The notes beneath the pieces are model-generated. The model did no database searches. It was not told the DNA's origin and saw only the letters and a program-made list of their open reading frames with translations. This document shows, piece after piece, positions 29,340 through 53,619 of a stretch of 64,000 nt of DNA. The position numbers and the translations under genes were made by a program. The stretch is from an uncultured Actinomycetes bacterium (lineage in GTDB: Bacteria > Actinomycetota > Thermoleophilia > UBA2241): the NCBI GenBank assembly GCA_963764225.1, contig CAVXRL010000007.1, positions 531,510 through 595,509 of the forward strand. The letters are read 5' to 3'. Numbering within the stretch: position 1 is the stretch's first letter; each line of letters starts with the position of its first letter.

Positions 29340-29367
29340 GGGCGCGGCTCGGTGGAGGGCGGCGGCG

Positions 29368-30675: not shown

Positions 30676-30695
30676 GCGGAGGTCCTTTCGGTGCT

Positions 30696-32078: not shown

Positions 32079-32128
32079 GGCGACCTCACCGAGCAGGTCG
32101 TGTTCGCTAGCGCGTGTCGCTCATGGGC

Positions 32129-32393: not shown

Positions 32394-32451
32394 GCTGGCC
32401 CTCCGTGGTCGTGGTCGTGGCTGGCTGGTCGTGCGCTCGCGGCGTGCCGGC

Positions 32452-33855: not shown

Positions 33856-33860
33856 GGAAC

Positions 33861-35228
33861 TTACTCCCTCGGGTCGACAGCGACAGGCTCGGCGCAGTCC
33901 GCCGTAGCCGGGATCTCGAAACTGAACTCGGCCCACTCACCCCGTTTGGAGTCGGCCGTGATGCGCCCGCCGTGCAGCTGGACGATGCGCCAGGAGTTGT
34001 AGAGCCCGACGCCGGTGCCGCGGCGGCTTTTGAGGGCCGGGTCGTCCAGGCGCGAGAAGCGGCGGAAGAGCTTGTCCTGCTGCGCCGTGTCGAAGCCCGG
34101 CCCGCTGTTCCACACGCTGATGCGCAGGCGTTCGCCGAGCTTGCGGTCGAACAGCACCTCGGCCTTGACGCGGATGTCGCCGCCCTCGTTGCCGTACTTG
34201 ATGGCGTTGTCCAGCAGGTTGACGGTGACGATGCGCAGCAGGGTGGGGTCGCAGCACACCGGCGGCAGCGCCGGCGACGGCATGCAGACCATGAGGTGCA
34301 CGCCGTGCGAGTCCGCCTGGGGGCGGACCAGGTCGACGGCCTCGTCGAGGACCTCTTCCATGACGTCCACGCGCGAGCGCGTGGCGAGCGTGAGCTCGCC
34401 GCCCTCGACGCGCGCCAGGTCGAGGTACTCGCGCACGAGGCTGAGCAGGTACTGCCCCTTGCGCGCCATGCTCTCGACCTTGGCCTTCTGCTCGGGAGTG
34501 AGGTCGCCGAGATAGCCCTGGGCGAGGACCTGGGCGTCCGTCACCATGGACGCCACGGGGCTCTTGAGCTCGTGGCTCACGAACCCGAGCATCTGGGTGT
34601 ACGCGTAGTTGGCGTCTTCGAGCTGTTCGATGCGCCAGGCCTTCTCCACGGCCTGGCTGAGGCGCTCGGTGATGGCCATCTGCAGCTCGATGTGCTGTGG
34701 GCCGTACATGTGGGGCCGCAGCGAGCTGCGGAAGATGAACCCGACCACGCGGCCCTCGACGCTGAGCGGGCAGGTGAGGCTGGAGCGCACGCCCTCGCGC
34801 ACGAGCAGGCGCGAGGAGCGGCTCTGCGGGCGGTCGTGGCTGTACGCCTCGAGGTCGCCGATGATGCGCGGCAGCCCGTTCTGCAGCACCTCGCTCAGCG
34901 TGCTGTTCTGAAGCGACTCGCGGTACCCCTGCTTCACGTACAGACGGTCGTAGGACGCCCGGTTGTAGTAGCTGGTGACCGAGCCGCCGTGCTCGTCCAC
35001 GAACGCCAGGCCCATGCGGTCGCAGGGGATGAGCGCCTGGGTGTGCTCGAAGAGGTAGTCGACGATGGCGCGCAGCGACGGCCTGGCGGCGATCTTCTGA
35101 TTGACGGTGCGGAGCACCGTCCGCGCCTCCGGGCTGATGGGTCTGAGGGCGTCGCCGTCACGGAACGGGTCGACGTAGGTGACGGCGGGGCGCTGGGTCT
35201 GCTGGGGTTCGTCGGCCATCGGCCTCAA
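33861..35228 (-). CDS. GAF-domain sensor histidine kinase
   Basis: N-terminal GAF-like region, HisKA (FVSHELKSP) and HATPase (NLLDNAIKY...GTGVGL). Confidence 0.75.
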   Translation of the reverse strand: MRPMADEPQQTQRPAVTYVDPFRDGDALRPISPEARTVLRTVNQKIAARPSLRAIVDYLFEHTQALIPCDRMGLAFVDEHGGSVTSYYNRASYDRLYVKQGYRESLQNSTLSEVLQNGLPRIIGDLEAYSHDRPQSRSSRLLVREGVRSSLTCPLSVEGRVVGFIFRSSLRPHMYGPQHIELQMAITERLSQAVEKAWRIEQLEDANYAYTQMLGFVSHELKSPVASMVTDAQVLAQGYLGDLTPEQKAKVESMARKGQYLLSLVREYLDLARVEGGELTLATRSRVDVMEEVLDEAVDLVRPQADSHGVHLMVCMPSPALPPVCCDPTLLRIVTVNLLDNAIKYGNEGGDIRVKAEVLFDRKLGERLRISVWNSGPGFDTAQQDKLFRRFSRLDDPALKSRRGTGVGLYNSWRIVQLHGGRITADSKRGEWAEFSFEIPATADCAEPVAVDPRE

Positions 35229-35298
35229 GTGTACCTCGTGCGGGCGGCCGGGCTGCCCTGAGTCGGGTCAGCCCGGCCGCCGCTGGTCTTGCGTCAGG

Positions 35299-37233: not shown

Positions 37234-37246
37234 TCCTCCGCTCTCG

Positions 37247-38443
37247 TCAGGCGCTCGGGGCGCGGTTTGCGATCTCGTCGCCGAAGCCCTCGAGGATCGA
37301 GAGGAAGGCGCTCGGGCTGGTCTGGCCGAGGCCGCACTTCGAGGCGACCTGCATGGTGGCGGCGAGGTCCTTGACGCTCTTGAGGAACTCGGGCGGGCAC
37401 TCGCCCTTCTTGAGGAGCTTGACGGCCTCGAGCATCTGGGGGTTGCCCAGACGGCACGGGGTGCACTGGCCGCAGCTCTCCTCGACGAAGAAGTCGAGGA
37501 AGTTCTCGGCCACGTCGAGGATGTCGCGGTCGGGGCCGATGACCATCACCGAGCCGCCCGTCGGGATGTCCTCGAACGCCAGAGCGCGCGTGAAGTCCCT
37601 TGCGGGGACGCACACGCCGCTGGCGCCGCCGATCTGCACCGCCTTGGCGCCCTCACCGCCGACCTCCCTGAGCAGGTCGGCCACGGTGATGCCCCACGGG
37701 AACTCGTACACGCCGGGCTTCTCGCAGTCGCCGCTGATGCTGAACAGCTTGTAGCCGGTCGACTTGTCGGTGCCGAACGTCTTGAACCAGTCACAGCCCC
37801 GGCAGAAGATCGCCGCCACCGAGGCGAGCGTCTCCACGTTGTTCACCACGGTGGGGTTGTTGAGCAGGCCGGCGACCACCGGGAACGGCGGGCGGTTGCG
37901 CGGCTCGCCGCGGAAGCCCTCGAGGCTCTCGATGAGGGCCGTCTCCTCGCCGCACACGTAGGCGCCGGCGCCCATGGCCACGAGGATGTCGAAGTCGAAG
38001 CCCTCGACGCCCATGATGTTGCGCCCGAGCAGGCCGGCCGCGCGCCGCCGCTGGATGACCTCGTTGAGGTGCGGGCGCAGGTAGGTGTACTCGGCGCGCA
38101 GGTAGACGATGCCGAGGGTCGCGCCGATGGCGCGGCCGCCGATGGTCATGCCCTCGAAGACGAGGTCGGCGAACCGCGTGAGGATGACCCGGTCCTTGAA
38201 CGTGCCGGGCTCGCCCTCGTCGGCGTTGCAGATGATGTACTTCTGGTCGGCCTTCTCCGCCGCGCAGAAGCCCCACTTCATGCCGGTGGGGAACCCGGCG
38301 CCGCCGCGGCCCTTGAGGCCGCTGTCACGCATGAAGTCGACGAGGTCGGCGCGGCTCATGGCCAGGGCGGCCGTGAGGCCGGCCTCGGCCTCGATGGTCT
38401 CGTAGGTGAGGGCGTTGCCCTGCGTCTCGATCGTGGCAGGCAT
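37247..38443 (-). CDS. hydB: Hydrogenase NADH-binding flavoprotein subunit HydB (NuoF-like, short form)
   Basis: [20 protein letters not shown] and ESCGQCTPCR motifs. Confidence 0.85.
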   Translation of the reverse strand: MPATIETQGNALTYETIEAEAGLTAALAMSRADLVDFMRDSGLKGRGGAGFPTGMKWGFCAAEKADQKYIICNADEGEPGTFKDRVILTRFADLVFEGMTIGGRAIGATLGIVYLRAEYTYLRPHLNEVIQRRRAAGLLGRNIMGVEGFDFDILVAMGAGAYVCGEETALIESLEGFRGEPRNRPPFPVVAGLLNNPTVVNNVETLASVAAIFCRGCDWFKTFGTDKSTGYKLFSISGDCEKPGVYEFPWGITVADLLREVGGEGAKAVQIGGASGVCVPARDFTRALAFEDIPTGGSVMVIGPDRDILDVAENFLDFFVEESCGQCTPCRLGNPQMLEAVKLLKKGECPPEFLKSVKDLAATMQVASKCGLGQTSPSAFLSILEGFGDEIANRAPSA

Positions 38444-38446
38444 CGC

Positions 38447-38947
38447 TCACGCCTCCTTCGACGCGGCCCGGCAGGCGGCCACGATCTCTTTGGCGGTCTC
38501 GGGAGTGACCCGCGTGTGGACTTCGTCGTTGACGAGCAGAGCGGGGCCCTGGTCGCACATGCCGACGCAGCTGGCCCACTCGAGCGTGAACAGGCCGTCG
38601 TCGGTGGTCTGGTCGAAGTCGATGCCGAGCTCGGTCTTGAGCGCGTCGGCGACGGCGTCCTTGCCGGCGAAGTCGCACGAGAGCGTGCCGCACAGGCGCA
38701 CCACGAACTGCCCGGTGGGGGCGCCGTGGAGGAACGCGTAGAACGACGCGACGCTGTAGACCTCCACGGGGTGGATGTCGAGCACGTCGGCGATGGTCTG
38801 CATGGTCTCCGAGTCGATCTCGTGGAACCGCCTCTTGACATCCGCGAGGATCGGGATGAGAGAAGAGCGGCCGGGGCCGAGCTTCTCGACGAGGCTCTCC
38901 ACCTCGGCCCTGAGCTGGTCCTGATTGGTGATGATGGTCGCTGGCAT
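38447..38947 (-). CDS. hydC: Hydrogenase subunit HydC (NuoE-like 2Fe-2S thioredoxin-like)
   Basis: C-x4-C ... C-x3-C (CGTLSCD ... CVGMCDQGP). RBS GAGAGGA lies before the ATG at 38947. A GTG at 38962 is an alternative start. Confidence 0.8.
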   Translation of the reverse strand: MPATIITNQDQLRAEVESLVEKLGPGRSSLIPILADVKRRFHEIDSETMQTIADVLDIHPVEVYSVASFYAFLHGAPTGQFVVRLCGTLSCDFAGKDAVADALKTELGIDFDQTTDDGLFTLEWASCVGMCDQGPALLVNDEVHTRVTPETAKEIVAACRAASKEA

Positions 38948-38958
38948 CTGGAGTCCTC

Positions 38959-39332
38959 TCACTGCTCGAGGAGCTTCTTGACCTTGGCGACCAGCGTCTG
39001 AGGCTCCACCGGCTTGGGCTGGAACTCATCGACCGGCACGATCTCGCCGTCCTTGTCGATGTTGAGGCCCATGGCGGCGTTGACGCTGGTGAGCATGATG
39101 ATCGGCAGCTCATTACCGTTCTTGCGGATCTCGCGCGCCATGCGGAGGCCGTCGTCGGGCTCTTCCATCATGACGTCGAGGATGAGGAGGTCGGGCTTGA
39201 CCTCATCAAGCTTCTTCATGCCGTCGGCGCGATTGGCTGCGCCGATGATCTCGTAGCCCTCGCGCTCGAGGACCAGGCGGCCGGCATCGACGATGTCCGG
39301 GTCGTCGTCAATGATGAGAATCTTTGGCACCA
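38959..39332 (-). CDS. Single-domain response regulator (CheY-like REC), GTG start
   Basis: KILIIDDDPDIVDAG...LILDVMMEEPDDG...KP. Confidence 0.7.
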
Positions 39333-39702
39333 CGCTCTCCTCTGTCCGTTTGCGTTCCCCCGGGGCGGGGTCGGCCCGCCCTCCACAAGCCCGATCCACT
39401 GCCCGGTCCCGCACCCATCCCGGAGAGACCGCTGCGCGGCAGGGACGGGTGGAGGAAGGACGATCGGTCAGGCCACACACTCCACTGGATCAACGGCAAG
39501 AACTTGGCCTCAAATCCGCTCATTTTCTAACACATCAACGGCAGCTTGTGCAAGGGTGCACGAGCGTCTGAAGTTAGTATCGCACATCCTCGAACAGGCA
39601 CAAGCCGTACCTTCTGGCGAGGTGAGGGAGACGATTGTGGACAGCTCGGAGTGCGCGGCGGGGAAGAGGCGACGCCGGGGCGGCCCTTGACGCGGCGAAG
39701 CC

Positions 39703-40933
39703 TCAGAGTTGGGGCGCCGCCGCGGTCGCGGCGTCGGCCGCCGGCTCGGCCGGCCTGGCCGGCCCCTCCGGCCGCGCGTCGTGCAGCGTGACGGTGAAGG
39801 TGCTGCCGACGCCGGGCTCGCTCTTCACCGTCGGCCTCGCCGTCGTACATGTTGGCGATCTTGCGCACCGTGCTGAGGCCGAGGCCGCTGCCGAGGATCT
39901 TGACCGTCTGCTCGTTCTTGATGCGCGTGAACTCGTTGAACAGCTTGCCGGCCTCTTCCGCGCTGAGCCCGATGCCCGTGTCGCTCACGGTGACGACCGC
40001 CGCGTCGCCCTTGCGGCTGAGCGTGACCTTGACGTCGCCGCCGTCGCGGTTGTACTTCACGGCGTTCGAGATGAGGTTGTTCAGGACGATCTCGACCTCG
40101 CCGGGGTCGGCCTTGAGCTCGACGTCCGGTCCGTCCGCGAGCTCCACCGTGATGCCCCGGCGCTCGGCGTCGACGGCGAACAGTTCCATCGACGCGCGCG
40201 CGAGCTCGCGCAGGTCCACGCGCCTGATGACGCGCTCGCGCTGCCCGGACTCGATGCGCGTGAGGTCGAGCAGGTCCATGATGAGCTTCTTCATGCCGTC
40301 CACGCGCACGATGCTGCGCTCCACCATCTGCAGGTTCTGGTCGGCCTCGGTGGTGCGCAGGATGTTGAGGTAGCCCTCGACGGCGTTGAGCGGCGCCTTG
40401 AGCTCGTGCGCGAGCACCGAGATGAAGTTGAAGCGGATCTCGCGCTTCTCCTCGGCGAGCTTGCGCGCCTGCTTGCTCAGGATGAGCTGGCTGGTCGCCT
40501 TGCGCAGCGCGTAGCGCAGCTCCTCGGGCGTGAAGGGCTTGGCGAGGAAGTCGTAGGCGCCGAGCTTGGTGGCCTTGACCGCCGTCTCGAACGTGGCGTA
40601 GGCCGTGATCATGATGGTGAGGACCTCGCGGCCCTGGGCGCTCATGGCGTCGAGCACGTCCATGCCGCCGACGCCCGGCAGCTTGAGGTCGAGCAGCAGC
40701 AGGTCGACCTCGCCGCCCTCGCCGAGCCACGTCAGGTAGTCCTCGCCGCTGGTGAAGTAGCGGAACTCGTAGTCGGCGTCGACGAGCACGTCGGCCACGT
40801 GCACCCTGTACTTCTGGATGATGCGGCGGACGCCGAGGCAGAGCGCCTCCTCGTCGTCGACCATGACGACCTTGAGGGTGACCTGCTGCGGGTCCATGAG
40901 GCTCTCGCGCGCGGTCGGGTCAGGAGAGTTCAT
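39703..40933 (-). CDS. Hybrid response regulator-histidine kinase (REC-HisKA-HATPase); apparent frameshift near 39835 in the HATPase C-terminus
   Basis: REC (VVMVDDEEAL...LLLLDLKLPG), HisKA (FISVLAHELKAPLN), HATPase (NLISNAVKY...DTGIGL...GSGLGLSTVRKIANMYDGE). In-frame junk follows. The +1 frame gives ...VKSEPGVGSTFTVTL... ending at TGA 39703. Confidence 0.65.
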
Positions 40934-40935
40934 GA

Positions 40936-42990
40936 TCAGCTCCCGGTGATCTCCTGCAGGCTGGCCGGGACGTCGGTGGGCGCCTCGTACCGGGGCAGGG
41001 AGATGCTGAAGGTGGTGCCGGTGGGGCCCTTGGCGGGGTCGGCGTTGGACTCCACGCCGATCTGGCCGCGGTGCATCTTGACGATGCCGTGCGTGACGGC
41101 GAGCCCGAGCCCGGTCCCCTTGCCGACCTGTTTGGTCGTGAAGAACGGGCTGAAGAGCTTGTCCAGGTTCTCGGGGGGGATGCCCGTGCCCTCGTCCTGC
41201 ACCGTGATGAGGACGTGCTCGTCGGTACCGTCGAGCTTGACGAGGATCTCGCCTCCGTCCGGCATGGCGTGCTGGGCGTTGGTGAGCAGGTTGGTGAGCA
41301 CCTGGACGATCTGGTCGCCGTCGAGCTCGGCGACGGGGTCCTCGAGGTGGTCGACGACCTGCACGGAGACGCCCTCGGCGACGGGCAGCGTGCGCATGAC
41401 CTCGGCGACGAGGCTGGTGACGTCGGTGGGCTGGCGCACCACCCGGCTCTGGCGGGCGAAGTTGAGCAGGCCGGAGATGATCTTCTTGCAGCGGTTGGCC
41501 TGGTCGACGATGAGCTTGACGTCGTCGGCCTCCTGGGAGTCGACCTCGCAGTCCTCGAGCAGCAGGTTGGCGTGCAGGAGGAGGATGCCGAGCGGGTTGT
41601 TGACCTCGTGGGCGATGCCGGCCGCGAGCTGGCCCATGCTGGCGAGCTTCTCGCTCTTGACCAGGGCCTCCTTGGTGGTCTCCAGCGAGTGGTTGGTCTC
41701 CTGCAGTTCGTCGACCGTCTTGCGCAGCTCCTCGACGGAGTACGGCAGGCACATCTCCACCTCGGCCAGGCCCTGCCAGATGGCCACCGCGTGGTGGCGG
41801 CAGGTGTCGTACCCGCAGGCCCCGCAGTCGAGCTCGTCCTCGGGGCCGTACTTGTTCATGCGCGCGAGGATCTCCTCGACCTCCTCGCCGGACGGCATGT
41901 CGTCGAAGCGCTGGTCGAACGGAGCGAAGGTGCGCGAGAGGTCCACGTCGGCGAACTCGGCGACCGCGGCCTCCCACGCCGCCTGGTCGAAGGCGCTCTG
42001 GCGGCGGCGCGTCTCCTGGCTGACGTCCGAGCGGCGTTTGAAGACGGGGTCCTCGCAGCTGAAGCCGGCGCCCATGATGCAGCCCTCGCAGCAGAGGATG
42101 TCGAGCAGCCGGGCCTCGGTGTCGCCGTGCTCGAAGTCGGTGATGGCCTCCACCAGGTTCTGGCGGCCGTCGGCGCTGACGATCTCGCCGTCCAGCAGGT
42201 CTTCTTCGAGATCGGCGGCCTGGAGCAGGCCGCGCGTGATGGGGAAGAGGGCGCCGAGGCTGCCGTGCGGCGGGTCGAAGTCGTCGTCGCCGCCGTCGCG
42301 CCCCGTGAGGCGGATGCCGTTCGAGGCGAGCAGGGTGCGCAGCTCGACGTAGGTGAGCGCCGCGTGGACCTCTCCCTCGAACTGCTCGTAGCGCGCCTCG
42401 CCCTTCTTGGCGATGCACGGGCCGATGAACACGACCCTGAGGTCCGGCCCGTGCTTCTTGTGCAGCACGCGCGCGATCGCGAGCATCGGCGAGACGATGG
42501 GCGCCAGGTTGTCGAGGATGCCGGGGTTGTACTTGCGCACGTAGCTGACGACGGCGGGGCAACTGGTGGCGATGTGCCGGCCGTCGCTCTCCTCGAGCAG
42601 GCGCGCGTACTCGGCGGCCACGAGGTCGGCGCCGAAGCTCACCTCGTGGACCTGGGCGAAGCCGAGGTCGCGGAGGGCGCCGACCAGCGCCGCCGTGTCG
42701 CACTCCGTGAACTCGGCCGGGTAGCTCGGCGCCACGATGGCCGCGACGGGAGCGTCACCGGCCAGCAGTCCCTCGGTGTCCTCGATGCCGCTGAGCACCT
42801 GCTTGGCGTTCTGGCTGCAGATGGTGACGCAGTTGCCGCAGCCGATGCAGCGCGTCTGGATGACGCTCGCCTGCCCGTCGAGGATCTGGATGGCCTTGGC
42901 CGGGCACTCGCGCACGCAGGTGTAGCAGCGGCGGCACTTCTCCCGGATCGTCGTGACCAGCTGGAGGTAGGGGACCTTGTCTTCGTTCAT
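40936..42990 (-). CDS. Sensory [FeFe]-hydrogenase-like protein fused to a histidine kinase (group C3-like HydS-HK): 2x[4Fe-4S]-H-domain-Cx2Cx4Cx16C-HisKA-HATPase
   Basis: CRRCYTCVRECP and CIGCGNCVTIC; H-domain variants TSCPAVVSY, GPCIAKKGE and CCEGCIMGAG; CGACGYDTCRHHAVAIWQGLAEVEMC; HisKA AHEVNNPL; HATPase LTNLLTNAQHAM...DEGTGI...GTGLGLAVTHGIV. Stop TGA overlaps the start region of the next gene. Confidence 0.85.
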   Translation of the reverse strand: MNEDKVPYLQLVTTIREKCRRCYTCVRECPAKAIQILDGQASVIQTRCIGCGNCVTICSQNAKQVLSGIEDTEGLLAGDAPVAAIVAPSYPAEFTECDTAALVGALRDLGFAQVHEVSFGADLVAAEYARLLEESDGRHIATSCPAVVSYVRKYNPGILDNLAPIVSPMLAIARVLHKKHGPDLRVVFIGPCIAKKGEARYEQFEGEVHAALTYVELRTLLASNGIRLTGRDGGDDDFDPPHGSLGALFPITRGLLQAADLEEDLLDGEIVSADGRQNLVEAITDFEHGDTEARLLDILCCEGCIMGAGFSCEDPVFKRRSDVSQETRRRQSAFDQAAWEAAVAEFADVDLSRTFAPFDQRFDDMPSGEEVEEILARMNKYGPEDELDCGACGYDTCRHHAVAIWQGLAEVEMCLPYSVEELRKTVDELQETNHSLETTKEALVKSEKLASMGQLAAGIAHEVNNPLGILLLHANLLLEDCEVDSQEADDVKLIVDQANRCKKIISGLLNFARQSRVVRQPTDVTSLVAEVMRTLPVAEGVSVQVVDHLEDPVAELDGDQIVQVLTNLLTNAQHAMPDGGEILVKLDGTDEHVLITVQDEGTGIPPENLDKLFSPFFTTKQVGKGTGLGLAVTHGIVKMHRGQIGVESNADPAKGPTGTTFSISLPRYEAPTDVPASLQEITGS

Positions 42991-43008: not shown

Positions 43009-43416
43009 TCAGTCCGCGCCGGCGAGCAGCTCGCTCACCTTGGCGAGGAGCGCCGGTGCGTCGATGGGCTTGTCGAAGTAGGCGTCGACGTTCATCTCGG
43101 CGAGGTCCTCGTCCGAGCCGGGGCGGAAGTTGAGGCCGAGCGCGCTGCTCACCGACGTGCTGATGATGATGGGCACGTGGGCGGTGCGCGCGTCGCTCTT
43201 GAGGCGGGCGGCGAAGGAGAATCCGGCGTCGATGCTCGTCATCATGAGGTCGGTGATGACGAGGTCCGGGGCCTCCTCGTCGATGCGCGTCTGCGCCTCG
43301 ACCGGGTTGGTGGCGGTGACGACGCGGTAGCCGGCTCCCTCGAGGATGAAGCGGTTGATCTCGAGGAAGTCGAAGTCGTCGTCGACGATGAGTATCAGTG
43401 CCTGCTGTCCGCTCAT
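43009..43416 (-). CDS. Single-domain response regulator (REC)
   Basis: LILIVDDDFDFLE...LVITDLMM...KP. Confidence 0.75.
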   Translation of the reverse strand: MSGQQALILIVDDDFDFLEINRFILEGAGYRVVTATNPVEAQTRIDEEAPDLVITDLMMTSIDAGFSFAARLKSDARTAHVPIIISTSVSSALGLNFRPGSDEDLAEMNVDAYFDKPIDAPALLAKVSELLAGAD

Positions 43417-43537: not shown

Positions 43538-45316
43538 TCAGACGCGGTCGTGCTCGAAGTAGTGGGTGTGCAGGAGGTGGTGCGAGATCTCGCCGCACGG
43601 CGCCCCGAGGTACTCCTCGTACAGGGCGCAGACGGCGGGATTCTCGTGCGACTTGCGCAGCTCGCGGCCCTCGTCCTCGCGGTAGATCGCCTCGATGCGC
43701 TTCCTGCGCACCTCGTTGGTGGTGAAGCGCGGCTGCCCGCCGCCGCCGATGCAGCCGCCGGGGCAGGTCATGACCTCGACGAAGTGGTACTCGGCCTCGC
43801 CGCTCTTGATCTGGTCGATGACCTTCTGCGCGTTGCCGAGCCCGTGGGCCACGGCGACCTTCAGGTCGGCGCCCTCGAGGAACGCCCAGTCTCCCTTGGC
43901 TCCCTCGACCTTGACGGTCGCCACCTTCACGCCGTCGAGGCCCTCGATGGGCTGGACGTGCAGGTCGGGGAAGGGGAACGGGGTCTCGGTGACGATCTCC
44001 CAGGCCGTGCGCAGGGCCGCCTCCATGACTCCGCCCGTGTTGGCGAAGATGTCGGCGGCGCCGGTGCTGATGCCGAGCGGCGCGTCCATCTGCTCGTCGG
44101 GCAGGCTGCGGAAGTCGATGCCGGCCTGCTTGATGAAGGCGCCGAGCTCGCGCGTGGTGAGCACGATGTCGACGTCCTGCACGCCGCTGTCGTTCATCTC
44201 GGGACGTGCCGCTTCGTACTTCTTCGCCGTGCACGGCATGACCGAGACCACGACCATGTCCTTCGGGTCCACGCCGATCTTCTCGGCGTAGTAGGTCTTC
44301 GCGATGGCTCCGAACATCTGCTGCGGGCTCTTGCAGGTGCTCAGGTTGTCGAGCATGTCGGGGTTGAAGTGCTCCATGTAGTTGATCCAGCCCGGGGAGC
44401 AGCTGGAGAACTGCGGCAGGGCGACCTGCTCGCCGTCCACGAGGGCCTTCTTGAGCCGCACGAGCAGCTCCGTGCCCTCCTCCATGATCGTGAGGTCGGC
44501 GGTGAAGTCCGTGTCGAACACGGCGTCGAAGCCGAGGCGGCGCAGGGCGGCGACCATCTTGCCGGTCACCAGGGTGCCGGCCGGGTAGTCGAAGCATTCG
44601 CCGAGAGCGGCGCGGATGGCCGGCGCGGTCTGGACGATCACCGTCTTGCCCGGGTCCTCGAGCGCCGCCCAGACGTCGTCGATCTGATTGCGCTCGGTGA
44701 TCGCGCCCACCGGGCAGACGGCGGCGCACTGGCCGCACTGCACGCACACGACGTCGCTCAGGTTCTGGGCGAACGCCGGGCCGATGAGGGTGGCGAAGCC
44801 GCGGCCCTGGGCGAACAGGCCGCCCACCTGCTGGACCTCGTTGCACACCGTGACGCAGCGGCGGCAGGCGACGCACTTGCCGGTGTCGCGGATGAGCGCC
44901 GGGGTGCTGTCGTCCACCATCCTGAGGGTCTTCTCGCCCTCGTACCGGAGGTCGCCGATGCCGAGGTCCTCGGCCAGCGTGCGCAGCTCGCAGTCGCCCG
45001 AGCGGGAGCAGGTGCGGCAGTCGCCGTCGTGCTCGGAGAGCAGCAGTTCGACCACCATCTGGCGCGCGTCGCGCACCTTGCCGGTGTTGGTCTTGACGAC
45101 CATGCCGTCGGTGGCCGGCTGGCTGCACGAGGCGACGAGGGAGCGAGCGCCCTCGACTTCCACGAGGCAGACGCGGCAGGCGCCGATGGACTGGACGTCT
45201 TCGAGGTAGCAGAGGGTCGGCACCTTCACGCCCGCCTGTCTGGCGGCCTGAAGCACCGTGGTGCCCTCGGGGACCTCGACGGTGATCCCATCAATGGTGA
45301 GGGTAGGCATGGTCAT
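43538..45316 (-). CDS. hydA: [FeFe] hydrogenase catalytic subunit HydA (set 2)
   Basis: 592 aa from MTMPTLTIDG. H-cluster motifs SSCSPGW, MPCTAKK and EVMTCPGGCIGGGGQP, plus N-terminal ferredoxin domains. Confidence 0.9.
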   Translation of the reverse strand: MTMPTLTIDGITVEVPEGTTVLQAARQAGVKVPTLCYLEDVQSIGACRVCLVEVEGARSLVASCSQPATDGMVVKTNTGKVRDARQMVVELLLSEHDGDCRTCSRSGDCELRTLAEDLGIGDLRYEGEKTLRMVDDSTPALIRDTGKCVACRRCVTVCNEVQQVGGLFAQGRGFATLIGPAFAQNLSDVVCVQCGQCAAVCPVGAITERNQIDDVWAALEDPGKTVIVQTAPAIRAALGECFDYPAGTLVTGKMVAALRRLGFDAVFDTDFTADLTIMEEGTELLVRLKKALVDGEQVALPQFSSCSPGWINYMEHFNPDMLDNLSTCKSPQQMFGAIAKTYYAEKIGVDPKDMVVVSVMPCTAKKYEAARPEMNDSGVQDVDIVLTTRELGAFIKQAGIDFRSLPDEQMDAPLGISTGAADIFANTGGVMEAALRTAWEIVTETPFPFPDLHVQPIEGLDGVKVATVKVEGAKGDWAFLEGADLKVAVAHGLGNAQKVIDQIKSGEAEYHFVEVMTCPGGCIGGGGQPRFTTNEVRRKRIEAIYREDEGRELRKSHENPAVCALYEEYLGAPCGEISHHLLHTHYFEHDRV

Positions 45317-45327
45317 GCTCTCCTTGC

Positions 45328-48300
45328 TCACGAGCCGTACTTGCCGTAGTCGCAGCGCAGGCAGCGCTTCGCCTCGGCGACCGCGACCTCCGCGGCCCAG
45401 CTCAGCTCGACCTCGTCGAAGTTGGTGACGCGGGCGCCGACGGCCAGTTCCTCGACCGCGTGGCGCTCGACGAACGCGGGGTCGGCGTCGGGGTCGAAGA
45501 ACGTCGGCGGCTCGATGTCGCGCCGCCAGAAGGCGTGGTTGACGCCGGTGAGGAGCTCGTCCATGGCGACGGCGGCCTTCTCGCCGGCGCCGATGGCCTC
45601 GACCACCGACGACGGACCGGTCGCCGCGTCGCCGCCGGTGAACACCCAGTCGACGCTCGTCTGGCCGGTGTCCGGGTCGGCGCCGAGGTAGCCCCAGCGG
45701 TTGAGCTCGACGGGGGTGCCGTCCAGCACGGCCGGCGCGTCGAGCTTCTGCCCGATCGCGGCGATGACGGTGTCGGCCTCGACCACGAAGTCGGGGTTGT
45801 GGCCGGCCACCGGACGGCGACGGCCGCTGCGGTCGTAGTCGCCCAGCGCCATCTCCTTGCAGCGCACGCCGGTGACGTTGCCGCTCGCGTCGCGGAGGAT
45901 CTCCTCCGGCGCGACGAGCGTCATGATGTCGATGCCCTCGAGGTCGGCGGCGTCGATCTCCTCGCCCCACGCCGGCATCTGCGCGCGCGTGCGGCGGTAG
46001 AGGATCCTGACGCTCTCGGCGCCGAGGCGCAGGGCGGTGCGGGCGGCGTCGATGGCCGCGTTGCCGCCGCCGATGACGGCGACGTTCTTGCCCACTTCGC
46101 CCTTGCCGCTGACGTTGTACTCCTTGAGGAAGGAGAGGCCGTCGTACACGCCCGGGCCGTCTTCGCCCGGGACGCCGATGCCGGCGCCCTGCGGGGCGCC
46201 GACGCCGACGAACACGGCCTCGTAGCCCTCGTCCCGGAGGCTCTGCAGCGTGAAGTCCTTCCCGAGCGCCTTGCCGTACTCGAAGCGCGCGCCCATGGAC
46301 TCGATCATCCTGACCTCGCGCTCGAGCTCGGGACGCGGCAGGCGGTAGGCCGGGATGGCCTGGACCAGCATGCCGCCGGCCTTGGGCTCGGCCTCGAACA
46401 CGACCGGCTTGTAGCCCAGCCGCGCGAGGAAGTAGGCGGCGGAGAGGCCGGCCGGCCCGGAGCCGACGACCGCGACCTTGCGCGCGGCGTTCTCGGCGTT
46501 CTCCACGACCTCCGGAAGCTGGATCTCCTCCTCCTGCTCCACCATGAAGCGCTTGACGTGGCGGATGGCGAGGGCGCCGTCGAGGCTGGAGCGCATGCAC
46601 TTGCTCTCGCAGGGGTGGAAGCAGACGCGGGCGCAGACGCTGGCGAGCGGGTTGCGCTCGCGGTGCAGCTTGAGCGCCTCGTCGTAGCGCTGCTCGCCCA
46701 CCAGGCTCACGAAGCCGGGGATGTTGACGCTGGCCGGGCACGCGTTGGAGCAGCGCGCCTTGAACAGCGTCGAGCAGACGCCGGCCTCGCAGTACTTGTC
46801 CTTGATGTGGGCCTCGTACTCGTGGCGGAAGTGGCGGATGGTGCTGAGCACCGGGTTGGGGGCCGTCTGGCCGAGGCCGCAGAGCGCGGTCTGGCTGATG
46901 GACTCGCCGAGGGCGATGAGACGCTCGATGTCGCCCTCCTCGCCCTCACCGTTGCAGATGCGCTCGACGATCTCGAGCATCCGCTTGGTGCCGACGCGGC
47001 AGGGCGGGCACTTGCCGCAGCTCTCTTCCTGCGTGAACTCGAGGAAGAACCGGGCGATGTCCACCATGCAGGTGTCCTCGTCCATGACGATGACGCCGCC
47101 GGAGCCCATGATCGCGCCGAGCTCCTGCAGGGTGGCGTAGTCCACCGGCACGTTGAGGTGCTCCTTGGGGATGCAGCCGCCCGAGGGACCGCCGAGCTGG
47201 GCGGCCTTGTACGCCTTGCCGTTCGGGATGCCGCCGCCGACCTCGTAGATGAGCTCGCCGAGCTGCATGCCGATCGGGACCTCGACGAGGCCGGTGTGCT
47301 GCACGTTGCCGCCGAGCGCGAACACCTTGGTGCCCTTGCTGCTCTCGGTGCCGGTGCTGGCGTACCAGGCCGACGCCCTTGAGGATGATCGGCGCGATGT
47401 TGGCGAAGGTCTCGACGTTGTTGAGCACGCTGGGCTTGCCCCAGAGGCCGCTGACGGCCGGGAACGGCGGGCGCGGCCGCGGCTCGCCGCGGTGACCCTC
47501 GATCGAGGTCATCAGCGCGGTCTCCTCGCCGCAGACGAAGGCGCCGGAGCCCATGCGGATCTCGAGGTCGAAGTCGAAGCCCGAGCCCATGATGTCGTTG
47601 CCGAGCAGGCCGTACTCGCGCGCCTGCCCGAGCGCGTGCTCGAGGCGCTCGACGGCGAGCGGGTACTCGGCGCGCACGTACACGTAGCCCTGGTGCGCGC
47701 CGATCGCGAAGGCGCCGACGACCATGCCCTCGATCAGCGAGTGCGGGTCGCCCTCGAGCACGGAGCGGTCCATGAACGCGCCCGGGTCGCCCTCGTCGGC
47801 GTTGCAGAGGATGTACTTGACGTCGTTGTCCTGCTGCTGGGCGAAGCGCCACTTCATCCCGGTGGGGAACCCGGCGCCGCCGCGGCCGCGCAGGCCCGAG
47901 GCGAGGACTTCTTCGACGACCTGCTCGGGGGTCATCGCGGTGAGCACCTTGGCGAGGGCCTGGTAGCCGTCGCGGGCGATGTACTCGTCGATGTTGAGGG
48001 GGTCGATGATGCCGGAGTTGCGCAGCACGATCTTGACCTGGCGGTTGAAGAACGGGATGTCGTCCATCTCCGCCTGCGTCCGCTCGGTGCCGGGCGCGTG
48101 ACTCACGAGACGCTCGACGACGCGGCCCTTGAGGAGGTGCTCCTCGACGAGCTCGGGCACGTCGTCGACCTTGATGTTCTGGTAGAACACGCCGTCCGGG
48201 TAGACGAGCGCCACGGGGCCCTGCACGCAGGGGCCGAGGCAGCCGGTCTCGACGACGTCGACCTCGCCGGCGAGCTCGCGAGCCTTGAGCTCCTCGCGCA

Positions 48301-48382
48301 CCGCCTTGCTCACGTCGAGGGCGCCGGAGGCGATGCAGCCGCCGCCGGTGCAGATGAGGAAGTGACTTCTCACGTCAGCCAT
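45328..48382 (-). CDS. hydB: HydB (NuoF-like flavoprotein with N-terminal thioredoxin-like domain) fused to a C-terminal GltD-like FAD/NAD(P) oxidoreductase domain; one apparent frameshift near 47327
   Basis: N-part is ORF 46946..48382 (...[13 protein letters not shown]...[10 protein letters not shown]...[10 protein letters not shown]). C-part is ORF 45328..47325 (...[20 protein letters not shown]...[10 protein letters not shown]..., then [22 protein letters not shown]...[15 protein letters not shown]...). Shifting the frame by +1 at the aagggcg/tcggcc junction restores ...[29 protein letters not shown]. Confidence 0.75.
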
Positions 48383-48399
48383 AGCAGATCCACTCGCTC

Positions 48400-48771
48400 T
48401 CAGGTCTTGATGAGGTAGGCCTCGACGGGGGTCCCGCCGACGAGGTGGTTGACGACGATGGTGTGCACTCTGGCCTTGTCGAGCAGGCCGTAGCGGTAGG
48501 TCCTGCCGTCGGACAGGGTCAGGGTCGCCATCGGCTCCTGTTCGCAGAGTCCGGCGCAGCCGGACTGGTGCAGGCTGGCGGAGGTGACGCCGTTGGCCGA
48601 GAGCTCGGTCATGAACGCGGCCACGATCTCGCGCGCGCCGGCGGCGATGCCGCAGGTGCCCATGTGCACGGTCACCTGCGTCTCCTTGCGGCCGGAGCGG
48701 AGGTCGATGTCGGCCTTCGCCTTCTCGGCCAGTGCCTTGAGCTGGTCGGGGCTCGTGATCCGGTCGGTCAT
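48400..48771 (-). CDS. Thioredoxin-like [2Fe-2S] ferredoxin (HydD-like small hydrogenase subunit)
   Basis: 123 aa with CGIAAG...CAGLC. ATG overlaps the hydC2 stop (ATGA). Confidence 0.65.
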   Translation of the reverse strand: MTDRITSPDQLKALAEKAKADIDLRSGRKETQVTVHMGTCGIAAGAREIVAAFMTELSANGVTSASLHQSGCAGLCEQEPMATLTLSDGRTYRYGLLDKARVHTIVVNHLVGGTPVEAYLIKT

Positions 48772-49307
48772 CAGGCGCTCCTCTCTACAAGGGCCGGCTC
48801 CTCGGCGTACTGGGCGAGGATCTCGTTGACGCGCTTGGGCTTGACCCGGTGGTGCACGTCGTCGTCGACCATGATCACCGGGGCGAGGCCGCAGGCGCCG
48901 AAGCAGCGGCCGATCTCCAGGGAGAACTGACGGTCCTCGGTGGTGCCGCCGATGTCGATGCCGAGTTCTTTCTTGAAGGCGTCCATGACGGCGACGCCGC
49001 CGCGCACGTAGCAGGCCGTGCCCAGGCAGATGCGGACGAGGTGCTTGCCGCGCGGGACGGTGGTGAAGAAGGAGTAGAACCCCACCACGCCGGCCACTTC
49101 GCTGTACGGTTTCCGCAGCTCGCGTGCGATGTGCTTGAGCGCGACCTCCGGCAGGTAGCCGAAGATGCCCTGGGCGAGCTGCAGCACGGGGATCAGGGCC
49201 CCGGGCTTGCCCCTGTACTCGGCGATGACCGCGTCGAGGCGCTCGAGGAGTTCCTCCTCGGTCGGCTCCTCGGTGCAGCATGCGCACTGGTTGACTGCTT
49301 CAGCCAT
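48771..49307 (-). CDS. hydC: Hydrogenase subunit HydC (NuoE-like 2Fe-2S), set 2
   Basis: ...CLGTACYVRG...CFGACGLAP. Confidence 0.8.
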   Translation of the reverse strand: MAEAVNQCACCTEEPTEEELLERLDAVIAEYRGKPGALIPVLQLAQGIFGYLPEVALKHIARELRKPYSEVAGVVGFYSFFTTVPRGKHLVRICLGTACYVRGGVAVMDAFKKELGIDIGGTTEDRQFSLEIGRCFGACGLAPVIMVDDDVHHRVKPKRVNEILAQYAEEPALVERSA

Positions 49308-49362: not shown

Positions 49363-49858
49363 TCAGCCAGCGCTCTCTGGAACAGCGGTGAGTTCCGAGA
49401 AGCGTGCCGGTATGTCCGGGCCGCGCAGGGTGGTGCGCGACCCGTCGTCTTTGAGGTCGACCCGGAACTCGATCTCCGGGTTGGTGGCGAACATCGCGGC
49501 GATGGAGGCGGCCACGTCGCCCAGCGGCGGGCGGTCGACGTTGGCGAGCCGCATGTGCGCGGTCGACGCAGACCCCGCCGAGCTCGCCGGACCGCCCCAC
49601 GGTGAGGCCGCCGCCGGCGGCCTCGGCCGCCTGCCGGAAGAGGCTGAGGCCGAGGCCCGTCTTCTTGTCGCTCTTGGTGGTGAAGAACGGGTCGAGGGCC
49701 TGCTCCGGTTCCACCGGCAGGCCCGGCCCGTCGTCCTCGACGCGCATCGTGAGCTCGTCCGCCGCGCGGTCGGCGACGATGGTCGTGGCGATCACCGTCG
49801 CCCCGGCGCGCACCGAGTTCTCGAGGATGTCGAGGAGGTAGAGCGAGAGGTCATGCAT
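49363..49858 (-). CDS. Histidine-kinase-like ATPase (HATPase_c-only) protein typical of hyd operons; apparent frameshift near 49560
   Basis: MHDLSLYLLDILENSVRAGA...VEDDGPGLPV...DKKTGLGLSLFRQAAE...GRSGELGG in frame 1 (ORF 49193..49858). C-terminus ...MRLANVDRPPLGDVAASIAAMFATNPEIEFRVDLKDDG... in the adjacent frame (ORF 49363..49554). Confidence 0.6.
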
Positions 49859-50937: not shown

Positions 50938-52504
50938 TCATCTCGCGCTCTCCTCCTCCACACGGGCGGTGTATGGACAGAGCGCGCGCGTGGCGCGCCC
51001 CATGACGACGTCCTCGGCGAGCGCGGCGCACGTGGGCGCGCCGCAGACGCCGCAGTCGCGACCGGGCAGCGCCCGGCTCTCTTCGTCGAGCTGGGCGAGC
51101 TTGCGGATGGCGGTCGCCATGTCCGCGTCCAGGCGGATGCCGGGCCGGGCGCGGAACGGCCGCGTGCGCGTGTGGCTGCCGCCGCCGCCCGGAGCGCCGC
51201 CGCCGCCGGCGGCCCAGCGCCAGGCCGCCACCGACGTGTCCTCGGCGAGCAGCGGGGTGCCGAAGCAGCCGCCGTCGCAGATGTACGGCTCCACGACCGC
51301 GACGCCGGGCAGCCGGCCGTCCTCGACCGCCTCGAGCACCGCGAGCACGTGGGCGACGCCGCTGACCACGAGCAGGTCGTCCGCTCCGACGCGCCTGCTG
51401 TGGGGAGGCGTCGCCGGGCGTGCGGAGCGCGCGCGCCGAGAGCCGCGGCAGCACCGCTTCGCGGACGGCCGCGGCCGTCACCGTGTCGCGCTGCGCCGTG
51501 GGCCGCTGCGAGAGCAGCGCCGTGCGCTGGCTCGGGCAGGACACGGCGAAGGTGGCGCTGCGCCCGTCGAGCTCGAGCTGCGCCGCCTCCCAGGGCGACG
51601 CGAGCGGCGCGAGGTGGTCGAGCAGCGAGGGGAACTTGACCTCCACGAGGCTGACGACCGCCGGGCACACCGGCGAGATCACGGGCGCCGGGCCGTCGCC
51701 GGTGGTGGCGAGGTCGATCAGCTCCCGGCGCAGGTCGTCCTCGTAGCGGTGCACGGAGACGACCTCGTCGTAGCCGAGCCCGAGGAGCTCCTCGACCACC
51801 TCGGGCACGGAGTGGTCGCCGAAGCCGGCGAGGAGCGCCGGTGGGACCACGAGCACGTCCCCGCCGGCGAGCGCGCCGGGCACGTCCTTCATCGTGAGCG
51901 CGCGCGGCGCGCAGGCGGCGATGCACGCGGTGCAGTCGATGCAGAGGTGGTCGAGCACGTGCGGCCGCGCGTCCCGCACGCGGATCGCGGCCGTCGGGCA
52001 GGCGACCAGGCAGTGGCGGCACTCCTTGCAGAGCGCGGCGTCCACGCCGAGCGAGGAGGGCCGCGCGCCCTGGTCCGCGGCCTCCGGCCGCAGCGACACG
52101 GTGAAGCTGACGCGCGTGCCGGCGCCGGGCGCCGAGGTGACCCGGAGCCGGTCGCTGTTGCGCAGGATGTTGGGCAGGCCCATGCCCGCGCCGAACCCGA
52201 GCGCGCGGGCCTCGGCCGAGGCCGTCGACCAGCCCTCGCGCATGGCCGCGTCCACGTCCGTCATGCCCGGGCCCTCGTCCACGACGTCCACGTCCAGCTG
52301 GCCGTCGCTCACGGCCGCCTCCAGGCGGCCGCCGCCCCGGGCGTGGATGACCACGTTCATCTCGGCCTCGTAGGCGGCGATCATGGCGCGCCGCACGGCG
52401 TCGCTCTCGGCGCCGATCCGCTTGAGGTGCTGCTTGAGGTCGCGGGAGGCAGCGCCCGCGCTCGTGAAGTCCCCGCAGCGGATGTCGTAGGCCAGGTGCT
52501 CCAT
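50938..52504 (-). CDS. RsbW-like serine-kinase/HATPase domain fused to ferredoxin and a degenerate [FeFe]-hydrogenase H-domain with C-terminal Cys cluster; apparent frameshift near 51410
   Basis: N-terminus MEHLAYDIRCGDFTSAGAASRDLKQHL...NVVIHARGG (anti-sigma/serine-kinase fold). CKECRHCLVACP and CIDCTACIAAC. H-domain relics SPVCPAVVSLV and VSCPSQRTA. C-part in another frame (ORF 50938..51369): ...VAVVEPYICDGGCFGTP...RDCGVCGAPTCAALAEDVVMGRATRALCPY. Confidence 0.65.
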
Positions 52505-52507
52505 GCG

Positions 52508-53551
52508 TCAGGAGACGCGCTCTCCGTCGAGCGCCGCGTAGATGAGGCCGCAGGTCTCGAAGACGCCCTGCGGCGAGACCATGAGCAGCGTGTCGTTGTC
52601 CTGGGCGAGCTGCACCATCTCGGCGTCCGGTTGGACGCCGTTGACGAAGCAGATGCCCGGCACGTCCATGAGCTCCGCGACGCGCAGCATCTGCACGCTG
52701 GCCAGGTTGCTCACCAGCAGCGTCTTGTCCGACGCCTCGTTGAGCAGGTCGCTGACGCGGTCGCCGGCGTAGACCTTGGCGACACTGGTGCCGCCGGGCT
52801 TGCCCGGAGTCACCAGGTGGGCCCCGATGGTGGCGGCCAGTTCCTCGAGCTTCATGTTCGACCTCGCGAGCAGGGATTCCAGTTCCTTGACGATGGGTCC
52901 GATGTCGCCGCTCCCGTTGGGCTGCGGCTCGGCGCGGCTGCTGAGCCGCGCGAAGTAAGCGGCCGACTCGAGCGCCGCCGTGATGTCCATGTACTCGACG
53001 AAGATCTCGTTGGGCAGGGCGAGCGGCGTGGGGGCGAAGCTGATGATGCTCTTGACCCCCGCGCGCACGAGCACGTCCGCGACCTCCTGGGCCGCCGTGC
53101 CGGGAACGGTGAGCACGGCGATCTGGATGCCGAGGTCGCGCACCAGTCCTTCCATGCGCGCGACGTCGAAGCAGCGCACGCCGTGCACCAGGGTGTCGTC
53201 GAGCGCCGGGTCGCTGTCGAACGCGGCGACGATGGCGACCGACGGGCTCTTCTCGGCGAAGTGCGAGAGCACGGCGTGCCCGAGGTTGCCGGCACCCACC
53301 AGCACGACCTCCTGGCGCACCGAGCCGTCGAGGAAGTGCGTGATGCTCTCGATGCAGGCGGCCACGTCGTAGCCCTTGTTGGGGCTGCCGGAATAGCCGA
53401 TCTCCATGAGGTCGCGGCGCACCTGGGCGGCGCTGACGACGGCGTGACGGGCGAGCTGGTGGGAGTAGATGCTCTCGACGCCGTCGGCCTGGAGGGATTG
53501 CAGCAGCCGCCGGTAGCGGCTCATGCGCGATACGGTCTTCCTCGATACCAC
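52508..53551 (-). CDS. rex: Redox-sensing repressor Rex fused to a C-terminal DRTGG-like domain
   Basis: Rex winged helix (SRYRRLLQSL...) plus Rossmann domain (VLVGAGNLGHAV...). Then about 140 extra residues (...KVYAGDRVSDLL...GICFVNGVQP...) resembling DRTGG-domain proteins found in hyd clusters. Confidence 0.75.
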   Translation of the reverse strand: MVSRKTVSRMSRYRRLLQSLQADGVESIYSHQLARHAVVSAAQVRRDLMEIGYSGSPNKGYDVAACIESITHFLDGSVRQEVVLVGAGNLGHAVLSHFAEKSPSVAIVAAFDSDPALDDTLVHGVRCFDVARMEGLVRDLGIQIAVLTVPGTAAQEVADVLVRAGVKSIISFAPTPLALPNEIFVEYMDITAALESAAYFARLSSRAEPQPNGSGDIGPIVKELESLLARSNMKLEELAATIGAHLVTPGKPGGTSVAKVYAGDRVSDLLNEASDKTLLVSNLASVQMLRVAELMDVPGICFVNGVQPDAEMVQLAQDNDTLLMVSPQGVFETCGLIYAALDGERVS

Positions 53552-53602: not shown

Positions 53603-53619
53603 TGTGAAATCTGTCACGA
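53603..53619. promoter_or_regulatory. Candidate Rex box TGTGAA-atct-GTCACG, about 55 bp upstream of the rex start (autoregulation?)
   Basis: Resembles the Rex consensus TTGTGAA-N4-TTCACAA, with two mismatches in the right half. Confidence 0.35.

Follow-up and report, generated by a model that had tools for sequence, protein, structure and literature searches.

A kinase fused to a hydrogenase-like module in a Rex-linked hydrogenase operon of an uncultured Thermoleophilia bacterium

A minus-strand region beside the hydrogenase genes of an uncultured Actinomycetes bacterium (Actinomycetota; Thermoleophilia; UBA2241) raises two questions: whether it holds one gene or two, and whether its product is an enzyme or a sensor. 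The region was analysed within a stretch of 64,000 nucleotides of contig CAVXRL010000007.1 (assembly GCA_963764225.1, positions 531,510 to 595,509), referred to below as the window; all coordinates are those of the window. An initial annotation, made from the sequence alone, had proposed an RsbW-like kinase or ATPase fused to a degenerate hydrogenase domain (H-domain), with one break in the reading frame. The locus is one gene, rather than two, for a 522-amino acid signalling protein in which a kinase and a hydrogenase-like module are fused. The gene, here called kinase-HydS, runs from 52504 to 50938 on the minus strand with an ATG at 52504-52502 and a TGA stop at 50940-50938. Its product has four parts: a GHKL kinase domain, two [4Fe-4S] ferredoxin motifs, a shortened H-domain and a C-terminal Cx2Cx4Cx16C motif. 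The best explanation of the whole, to which a probability of about 0.6 is given, is an H2 or redox sensor kinase that carries a module like those of Group D hydrogenases, acts on DRTGG domains and Rex, and belongs to an operon with a Rex operator.

In the upstream frame the GC content at third codon positions (GC3) was approximately 1.0 from the ATG to about 51420. This frame matched HATPase_c_2/HATPase_c (residues 16-139), ferredoxin motifs and the first 100 or so model positions of Fe_hyd_lg_C in Pfam. The downstream frame carried the YICDGGCFG loop and the PF04060 (FeS) Cx2Cx4Cx16C motif. All reported Pfam matches exceeded their gathering thresholds, and no NCBIfam model reached its cut-off on the protein. 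With the repaired protein as query, a large-database search gave 1056 homologues (E <= 1e-5), of which the best 100 or so were intact, 520 to 525 amino acids long, and had the same Pfam set (HATPase_c_2 + Fer4 + Fe_hyd_lg_C + FeS). The closest (P0001; 522 amino acids, intact) was 91% identical over 100% of the query. The full-length fused form made up approximately 60 clusters at 50% identity in an exhaustive representative search, and 423 kinase-HydS loci were confirmed in GTDB species genomes. The family is large and widespread, and is effectively unnamed and uncharacterised. That the protein is a single fusion of an RsbW/SpoIIAB-like kinase and a hydrogenase-like module was thus borne out by more than 100 homologues. 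The deposited sequence does give two open reading frames (ORFs), as two separate genes would. Such a reading is barely credible given the intact single ORFs of those homologues, and the junction, which falls in a linker inside the H-domain, has neither start codon context nor a conserved stop.

The frame is broken once, as had been proposed, but not inside the gcgcgcgcgc run named in the initial annotation; the break lies 15 to 39 nucleotides downstream of it. The coding signal (GC3) changes frame at about 51480-51420. In the family alignment the first frame was valid through ...LSARALRTPG (G364, 51415-51413) and the second from GADDLLVV (51387). The window gene has 1567 nucleotides compared to 1569 in a 92%-identical locus (L001), and DNA alignment of the two confined the indels to 51389-51413. 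Slippage in the (GC)5 run was ruled out as the cause, the run being in frame and conserved in L001. A programmed frameshift was also ruled out. Break positions differed among contigs of long-read style, and none was found in 43 other loci.

Frame breaks were located by a tblastn search of the window with proteins from the intact operon of L002, a relative with 70% identity, covering 18 syntenic genes. This was used in place of a count of GC3 frame hops across the whole window, which was only semi-informative. Exactly one frame change was found in each of three genes, namely kinase-HydS, a small HATPase gene (49554-49565) and the NuoF-GltD gene (47327-47367). The same test was applied to 80 related loci from GTDB genomes. 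Thirty-seven of these were in records named 'MFD ... contig_N', which we take to be Microflora Danica nanopore/Flye metagenome-assembled genomes. The MFD records had 64 breaks in this operon over 288 kb of aligned coding sequence (2.2 per 10 kb). This was approximately 20 times the rate in the other 43 loci, mostly NODE_ and k141_ contigs, which had 3 per 284 kb. Kinase-HydS itself was broken in 6 of the 37 MFD-type loci, at differing positions, and in none of the 43 others. The frame after the break had no stop codon and a GC3 of 0.95-1.0. The ratio of nonsynonymous to synonymous substitution rates (dN/dS) against L001 was 0.21 before the break and 0.33 after it. Based on the intact relatives, the break rates in MFD contigs, and the coding signal and dN/dS beyond the break, the break is most likely a long-read consensus or assembly error, the long-read technology of the window itself being presumed.

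One observation speaks against a sequencing error, namely that three of the approximately four breaks detected in the window lie in this one operon. The less likely alternative is a genuine frameshift in this strain, which would make the gene a true pseudogene in a decaying operon with three broken genes. It would account for three breaks inside approximately 10.5 kb next to eight intact flanking housekeeping genes, with just one more candidate elsewhere on the minus strand (approximately 28470-28525, in a radical-SAM gene of HydE/G type). It is nevertheless improbable. Three breaks in approximately 19 kb of aligned coding sequence match the rate of contigs of the same style, in which the breaks hit different sites and different genes. 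The sequence beyond the break has no stops, normal GC3 and a dN/dS of 0.33, and the catalytic and ligand residues are all intact on either side.

The deposited gene call at this locus is a 638-amino acid ORF (P0073, 50588-52504) that continues in the wrong frame into the neighbouring gene and is present in public protein sets. In it the kinase and half of the hydrogenase module are followed by approximately 155 out-of-frame Arg-rich residues and then by the in-frame DRTGG protein of the following gene. This chimeric ORF exists only because the 70% GC sequence has no wrong-frame stop. It is an annotation artefact and should not be propagated. Gene calls from 'MFD ... contig_N' records, fragment and chimeric ORFs among them, need careful treatment in general. 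MFD contigs with breaks in this operon include L001, L003, L008, L011, L016, L018, L023, L026, L034, L041, L056 and L071.

The N-terminal domain scored 36 bits against HATPase_c_2 (cut-off 27.4) and also matched HATPase_c. The NCBIfam model spIIAB reached 43 bits, below its cut-off. The GHKL motifs were EAEMNVVIHA (52369-52340), DEGPGM (52279-52262) and GFGAGMGLP (52198-52172). Residues E46, N50, D76, G78, G80 and G103-G107 of the N, G1 and G2 boxes were invariant across the family, and from these the kinase/ATPase domain looks functional. A family profile matched SpoIIAB (1til/1l0o) with E = 8.6e-5 over residues 34-134. The AlphaFold2 (AF2) model of P0001 matched SpoIIAB in Foldseek with a target-normalised TM-score of 0.83 and a root-mean-square deviation of 2.2 A. 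A phmmer search of PDB sequences with the N-terminal domain alone gave no match, although the profile and fold searches did. The GHKL fold, the three boxes and the size of approximately 140 amino acids are those of SpoIIAB and RsbW, and the RsbW-like N-terminus first proposed is upheld. The other label offered for it, an HPr-kinase-type ATPase, does not apply. The fold is GHKL and not P-loop, no Hpr_kinase_C or P-loop match was found in the protein with Pfam, and resemblance to the N-terminal domain of HPr kinase (HPrK) is limited to the neighbouring DRTGG proteins.

The two ferredoxin motifs, the diverged H-cluster loops and the terminal Cys cluster that had been read from the sequence were all present on the minus strand. 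The ferredoxin motifs, CxxCxxCxxxC[P/A]P, lie at 52030-51995 and 51943-51905 and all eight cysteines are invariant. The H-cluster loops are L1, SPVCP (C280, 51676-51662), L2, VSCPSQR (C323, 51544-51524), and L3, YICDGGCFG (C410 and C414, 51285-51259). These four cysteines are invariant in the family. Across phyla, E406 and the PPA and SP motifs vary little or not at all. Fe_hyd_lg_C scored 27.4 bits (cut-off 22.1) in a partial match to model positions 9-104 of 245, and the first part of the H-domain aligned with HDCR HydA2 and DdH in a hidden Markov model alignment. The similarity was far above chance and held in profile searches, where the family profile matched solved [FeFe] hydrogenases with E = 2.9e-16 in two blocks (F-domain to L1, and L3). 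The C-terminal cluster also matched the N-termini of RnfB and CFeSP. The P0001 model had a predicted local distance difference test score (pLDDT) of 77.7 overall and approximately 90 in the H-domain core. It matched CbA5H, DdH, CpI and the HydA of HydABC over approximately 380 columns (Foldseek E = 6e-10, probability 1.0), so that one model of a 91%-identical protein resembled both hydrogenases and SpoIIAB.

The catalytic motifs of Group A enzymes (TSCCPxW, MPCxxKxxE and ExMxCxxGCxxGGGQP) were not found in the window protein, which has SPVCPAV, VSCPSQRTA and EPYICDGGCFGTPL. The NCBIfam model FeFe_hydrog_A scored 43 bits against a cut-off of 406. The position of the gene within a hydrogenase operon would suit a catalytic subunit of a HydABC enzyme. 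This is as hard to credit as the two-gene reading, since the GCxxGGGQP motif and the two others are missing and a bona fide HydA is encoded downstream.

On its sequence features the protein lies near TamHydS of Thermoanaerobacter mathranii and other 'putative sensory' hydrogenases of Group D (M2e), with the H-domain further reduced. Group D hydrogenases have been proposed to be sensory rather than catalytic (PMC8163306, PMC3561251). The window protein shares with TamHydS an F-domain with two [4Fe-4S] clusters, an H-domain with four cysteines and a C-terminal Cx2Cx4Cx16C motif, the signature cluster of Group C and D sensory hydrogenases (PMC8163306, PMC13104023). No PAS match was found in the window protein, and TamHydS is also without a PAS domain (PMC8163306). 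The position of CpI C299 is taken by a hydrophobic, non-protonatable residue in both, V279 here and A137 in TamHydS (PMC10407848). Also common to both are a Glu at the E289 position (E406 here), the conserved D-C and E-D around the C-terminal cluster, and a gene placed upstream of a bifurcating-type Group A hydrogenase and beside a histidine-kinase-like ATPase, which in the window is fused.

The differences from TamHydS are the covalent N-terminal ATPase/kinase and an H-domain approximately 25-35 residues shorter. The L1-to-L3 span is 130 residues in the window clade compared to about 155 in TamHydS-like proteins, approximately 25 fewer. CpI M353 is replaced by V321 and not by the Ser/Thr that is well conserved in M2e (PMC8163306). 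This position is V, A or P in the fused family and mostly T or S in unfused relatives. CpI K358 in L2 is replaced by Q326 and M497 by Y408, and the GGCxGG of L3 is GGCFG[ST]. E252 and E289 are the residues of a proton pathway specific to Group D (PMC10407848). The second is kept as E406, but no member of the fused clade has the GGE loop on which E252 lies.

The nearest unfused relatives had 415-450 amino acids, matched residues 150-515 or so with E values of about 1e-35 to 1e-41, and were approximately 30% identical to the window protein, with M2e architecture. Their motif offsets equalled those of TamHydS (numbering of PMC10407848 and PMC13104023), that is, L1 Cys138, +114 for E252 in the GGE loop, +151 for E289 and approximately +241/+266 for C379/C404. 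At their loci a separate HATPase gene of 142-143 amino acids lies immediately upstream of the hydrogenase-like gene; the window protein thus joins what are two neighbouring genes elsewhere. The canonical Group D motifs persist in P0175, a further relative with a fused kinase. Fusion and H-domain reduction were therefore separate events, and the window clade is a derived, reduced one.

A less likely reading of the protein is a redox sensor with FeS clusters only. The [2Fe] subcluster would be lost, as in eukaryotic Nar1/NARF-type hydrogenase-like proteins, and the four cysteines would hold just a [4Fe-4S] cluster. The input would then be ferredoxin or the redox poise of the cell and not H2, with the kinase still passing the signal on. 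In favour of this reading are the missing proton-relay Cys, the replacement of the two framing Met residues and the absence of the E252 loop. Also in its favour are the loss of the Lys which in Group A enzymes binds the distal CN, the altered L3 and shortened L1-L3 span, the partial Pfam match and the derived position of the window clade relative to P0175. On the other side, the four cysteines are conserved or nearly so across phyla, as are E406 and the PPA and SP motifs, unfused Group-D-like sequences differ at the L2 Lys as well (K, M, Q, R), and hydE/F/G lie 17 kb away in the same island. The description of the H-domain as degenerate is right in part. It is truly diverged and has lost the proton-relay Cys, the L2 Lys and approximately 25 residues, but it is not cofactor-less in appearance, with its four cysteines invariant and HydE/F/G encoded in the window.

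The operon order is Rex-DRTGG, kinase-HydS, DRTGG, PHP, HATPase, HydC, HydD (small 2Fe-2S), HydB-GltD and HydA. The genes are tightly coupled, with 3-nucleotide spacing or ATGA/GTGA overlaps, and the rex stop lies 3 nucleotides before the kinase-HydS ATG. The C-terminal domain of Rex (approximately 120 amino acids) has a paralogue in the stand-alone DRTGG protein (32% identity, E = 3e-13). In the family of the latter, 16 of 22 members matched DRTGG and 4 of 22 matched Hpr_kinase_N; the related PDB structure is the HPrK N-domain 1ko7. The family has an invariant D34-x-x-S37-D38. A Rex-operator-like palindrome, CGTGACAGATTTCACA, lies upstream of rex, just downstream of a promoter-like TTGACA-18 nt-GAGAAT site. 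Four Rex-operator-like matches were found in the window against 0.28 expected. The palindrome was conserved upstream of rex with three or fewer mismatches in 59 of 62 loci, where the background mode was five to six mismatches.

The operon order was kept in about 80 loci across phyla. In loci labelled Actinomycetota/Thermoleophilia the upstream gene was a full-length Rex match. In those labelled Planctomycetota, Nitrospiraceae, Spirochaetales, Hydrogenedentota and Bradymonadales it matched only the DRTGG-like part of Rex. The DRTGG-HATPase-HydS trio was also found outside any hydrogenase operon. In natural fusions DRTGG precedes the hydrogenase module (P0251) or follows it (P0208), and Rex is joined to DRTGG in the window.

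From the fusions and linkages (kinase-HydS, DRTGG-HydS and Rex-DRTGG) we infer, with moderate confidence, a mechanism that runs from the cluster module through the kinase and DRTGG to Rex. The metal-cluster module would report H2 or the cellular redox state and would govern the fused kinase through either its activity or its binding state. This kinase may act on the DRTGG domains of the neighbouring stand-alone protein and of the Rex tail. The invariant D34-x-x-S37 of the stand-alone protein is a candidate phospho-acceptor, and the PHP protein is a candidate opposing phosphatase that would reverse the modification. The output would be a modulated Rex-dependent expression of the hydrogenase operon, in which an H2/redox signal is combined with the NADH/NAD+ signal of Rex. 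A bolder and more tentative form of this proposal, which may well be wrong, is that an undescribed partner-switch-like module is made up of kinase-HydS, both DRTGG domains and the PHP protein. DRTGG would take the place of STAS as the phospho-acceptor or binding partner of an RsbW-type kinase, the reduced, non-catalytic hydrogenase domain would give the H2/redox input, and the output would pass directly to Rex via its DRTGG tail.

A classical anti-sigma partner switch was weighed against the DRTGG/Rex mechanism. In it the kinase would bind a sigma factor and phosphorylate a STAS anti-anti-sigma protein, with a PP2C phosphatase elsewhere in the genome. SpoIIAB is the closest relative of the kinase domain in sequence and fold, and the Group C proteins HydS/HfsB adjoin a Ser/Thr kinase and a phosphatase (PMC5707799). 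This arrangement is very improbable here. Neither the operon in about 80 loci nor approximately 45 scanned ORFs of the window yielded a gene for STAS, PP2C/SpoIIE or a sigma factor, and the STAS antagonist and PP2C partners that the initial annotation suggested looking for are thus missing from these. The small proteins that are invariably linked are DRTGG/HPrK-N-like and not STAS, and they are also fused to the hydrogenase module or to Rex. The view, in the initial annotation, of a redox-sensing partner-switch kinase rather than an enzyme agrees with the Group D proposals as to the sensory role, but the classical STAS, PP2C and sigma-factor set was not found. The window protein thus differs from SpoIIAB and RsbW in its fused metallo-sensor domain, in a conserved neighbourhood without that set and in its proposed DRTGG/HPrK-N-like partner.

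Several observations weigh against the H2/redox sensor kinase acting on DRTGG and Rex. DRTGG is only a candidate substrate or binding partner of the kinase, and it is not the STAS fold used by the known RsbW/SpoIIAB kinases. Binding of an H-cluster is doubtful with V279, V321, Q326 and Y408 in place of C299, M353, K358 and M497, with the E252 loop of TamHydS deleted and with a match to Fe_hyd_lg_C that is only partial. The 80 loci were chosen by similarity to kinase-HydS, and the synteny statistics hold within this family only. In TamHydS, the closest studied relative, the C-terminal cluster did not respond to H2 (PMC13104023). Signal transduction in Group D has been named explicitly as an open question (PMC8163306, PMC13104023).

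Two other known systems offer comparison. The Group C (M2f) proteins (TmHydS, R. albus HydS and T. saccharolyticum HfsB) are also hydrogenase-like sensors with a C-terminal four-Cys cluster, and are linked genetically to genes for a Ser/Thr kinase and a bifurcating hydrogenase (PMC5707799, PMC3561251). A regulatory phenotype has been shown for hfsB (PMC5707799, PMC3561251). Group C proteins have a PAS domain, a separate kinase (HfsC) and a separate phosphatase (HfsD), whereas the window protein has no PAS domain, its kinase is fused and its linked partners are DRTGG and PHP. In Ralstonia eutropha HoxBC-HoxJ a hydrogenase of low activity serves as an H2 sensor that acts through a kinase on hydrogenase gene expression (cited in PMC5707799). 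Its metal site and fold are unrelated, its output is a histidine kinase with a response regulator, and its complex is non-covalent. In the literature searched there was no description of the kinase-fused reduced form, of DRTGG with hydrogenase or of DRTGG with Rex. The searches for anti-sigma with Group D and FeFe and for TM142x locus tags returned nothing relevant.

Table 1. Positions of the features described, in window coordinates.
Feature	Position	Strand	Remarks
Whole kinase-HydS (Group-D-like) fusion gene	50938..52504	-	522 amino acids after repair of net +1 frame error
GHKL Ser/Thr-kinase / anti-sigma-factor-like domain, residues 1-140	52085..52504	-	N, G1, G2 boxes intact
F-domain, two [4Fe-4S] motifs (C159, C162, C165, C169; C188, C191, C194, C198)	51893..52045	-	Pfam Fer4_7, Fer4_10, related
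H-domain, first part, upstream frame: PPA, L1 SPVCP, SPW, L2 VSCPSQR	51413..51862	-	Fe_hyd_lg_C residues 222-307
(GC)5 run, not break site	51427..51436	-	In-frame S-A-R-A-L, conserved in L001 and relatives
Frame-break interval	51388..51412	-	Net +1 shift; hypervariable linker, pLDDT <50 at residues 366-374 of P0001 model
H-domain, second part, downstream frame: E406 in VEPY (51294-51283), L3, variable Gly-rich linker	51055..51387	-	Aligned with hydrogenase L3
C-terminal Cx2Cx4Cx16C [4Fe-4S], CGVCGAPTC-x16-C	50977..51054	-	PF04060 FeS 46 bits, cut-off 23
Rex-operator-like palindrome	53603..53618	-	Approximately 50 nucleotides upstream of rex start
Rex (residues 1-205) with C-terminal DRTGG-like domain (approximately 225-347)	52508..53551	-	NCBIfam Rex NF003995 186 bits, cut-off 126
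Stand-alone DRTGG / HPrK-N-like protein, 117 amino acids	50588..50941	-	Pfam DRTGG 22.8 bits; start overlaps kinase-HydS stop (ATGA)
PHP-domain phosphoesterase, 246 amino acids	49851..50591	-	Pfam PHP, PHP_C; NCBIfam; synteny; coupled via GTGA overlap
Second small HATPase_c protein (164 amino acids in intact relatives)	49363..49858	-	Own frame break 49554-49565
Operon structural genes	43538..49307	-	HydC to HydA
HydC/NuoE	49307-48771	-	
Small 2Fe-2S protein	48783-48400	-	
HydB/NuoF fused to GltD-like domain (1022 amino acids)	48382-45328	-	Frame break 47327-47367
HydA	45310-43538	-	
Response regulator between hydA and second sensory hydrogenase	43009-43416	-	
Second sensory-type [FeFe]-hydrogenase-like protein with fused HisKA + HATPase_c	40936-42990	-	Directly downstream of hydA
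Receiver-HisKA-HATPase protein	39527-40954	-	Precedes second NuoE-NuoF-HydA set
Response regulator	38959-39480	-	Precedes second NuoE-NuoF-HydA set
Second NuoE-NuoF-HydA set	35299-38962	-	HydA paralogue 52% identical
GAF-histidine kinase	33861-35267	-	After maturation island
H-cluster maturation island (HydE/F/G)	28241-33936	-	
Radical-SAM + BATS gene	32452-33936	-	Maturation island
Small ORF	32129-32389	-	Maturation island
Aspartate ammonia-lyase/fumarase-type lyase	30696-32120	-	Maturation island
HydF	29368-30705	-	Maturation island
Radical-SAM gene	28470-29411	-	Maturation island

The second sensory-type protein of the window has an F-domain, an H-domain (ATSCPAVV, GPCIAKKGEA and LCCEGCIMG) and a C-terminal four-Cys motif. 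With this HisKA-fused hydrogenase downstream of hydA, the operon is flanked by two hydrogenase-kinase fusions, one of the Ser and one of the His type. The His-kinase-hydrogenase arrangement was conserved in L002. Both HydA paralogues (43538-45310 and 35299-37128, minus strand) have (S/T)SCSPGW compared to the textbook TSCCPxW, and this too was conserved in L002. An error or oddity was ruled out as the identical motif is present in the solved HydA1 chain 7q4v_A.

At the start of the window two genes for the dimethylamine methyltransferase MtbB (Pfam Dimeth_Pyl; 497-1924 and 4284-5717, minus strand) are split by an in-frame TAG at 860-862 and 4647-4649, respectively. The split falls between Pfam model positions 353 and 355, the position of pyrrolysine. 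MttB-family genes are located at 1-756 and 2821-4308. Together these genes suggest pyrrolysine-dependent methylamine use in a Thermoleophilia-like genome.

A sensory hydrogenase beside a kinase would not surprise a specialist; the fused, reduced form and the link to DRTGG appear to be new. The reduced H-domain is a natural experiment on which active-site features are dispensable to a sensor. Three sets of fusions, kinase-HydS, DRTGG with the hydrogenase module in relatives and Rex-DRTGG in the window, point to the direct signalling partners. Taken together, they outline a simple circuit, open to test, by which H2 or redox state would control electron-bifurcating hydrogenases. It is present in the abundant uncultured Thermoleophilia of soils and sediments as well as in several other phyla. 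If the partner-switch-like module is real, a circuit within one operon would sense both H2 and NADH/NAD+ and control an electron-bifurcating hydrogenase.

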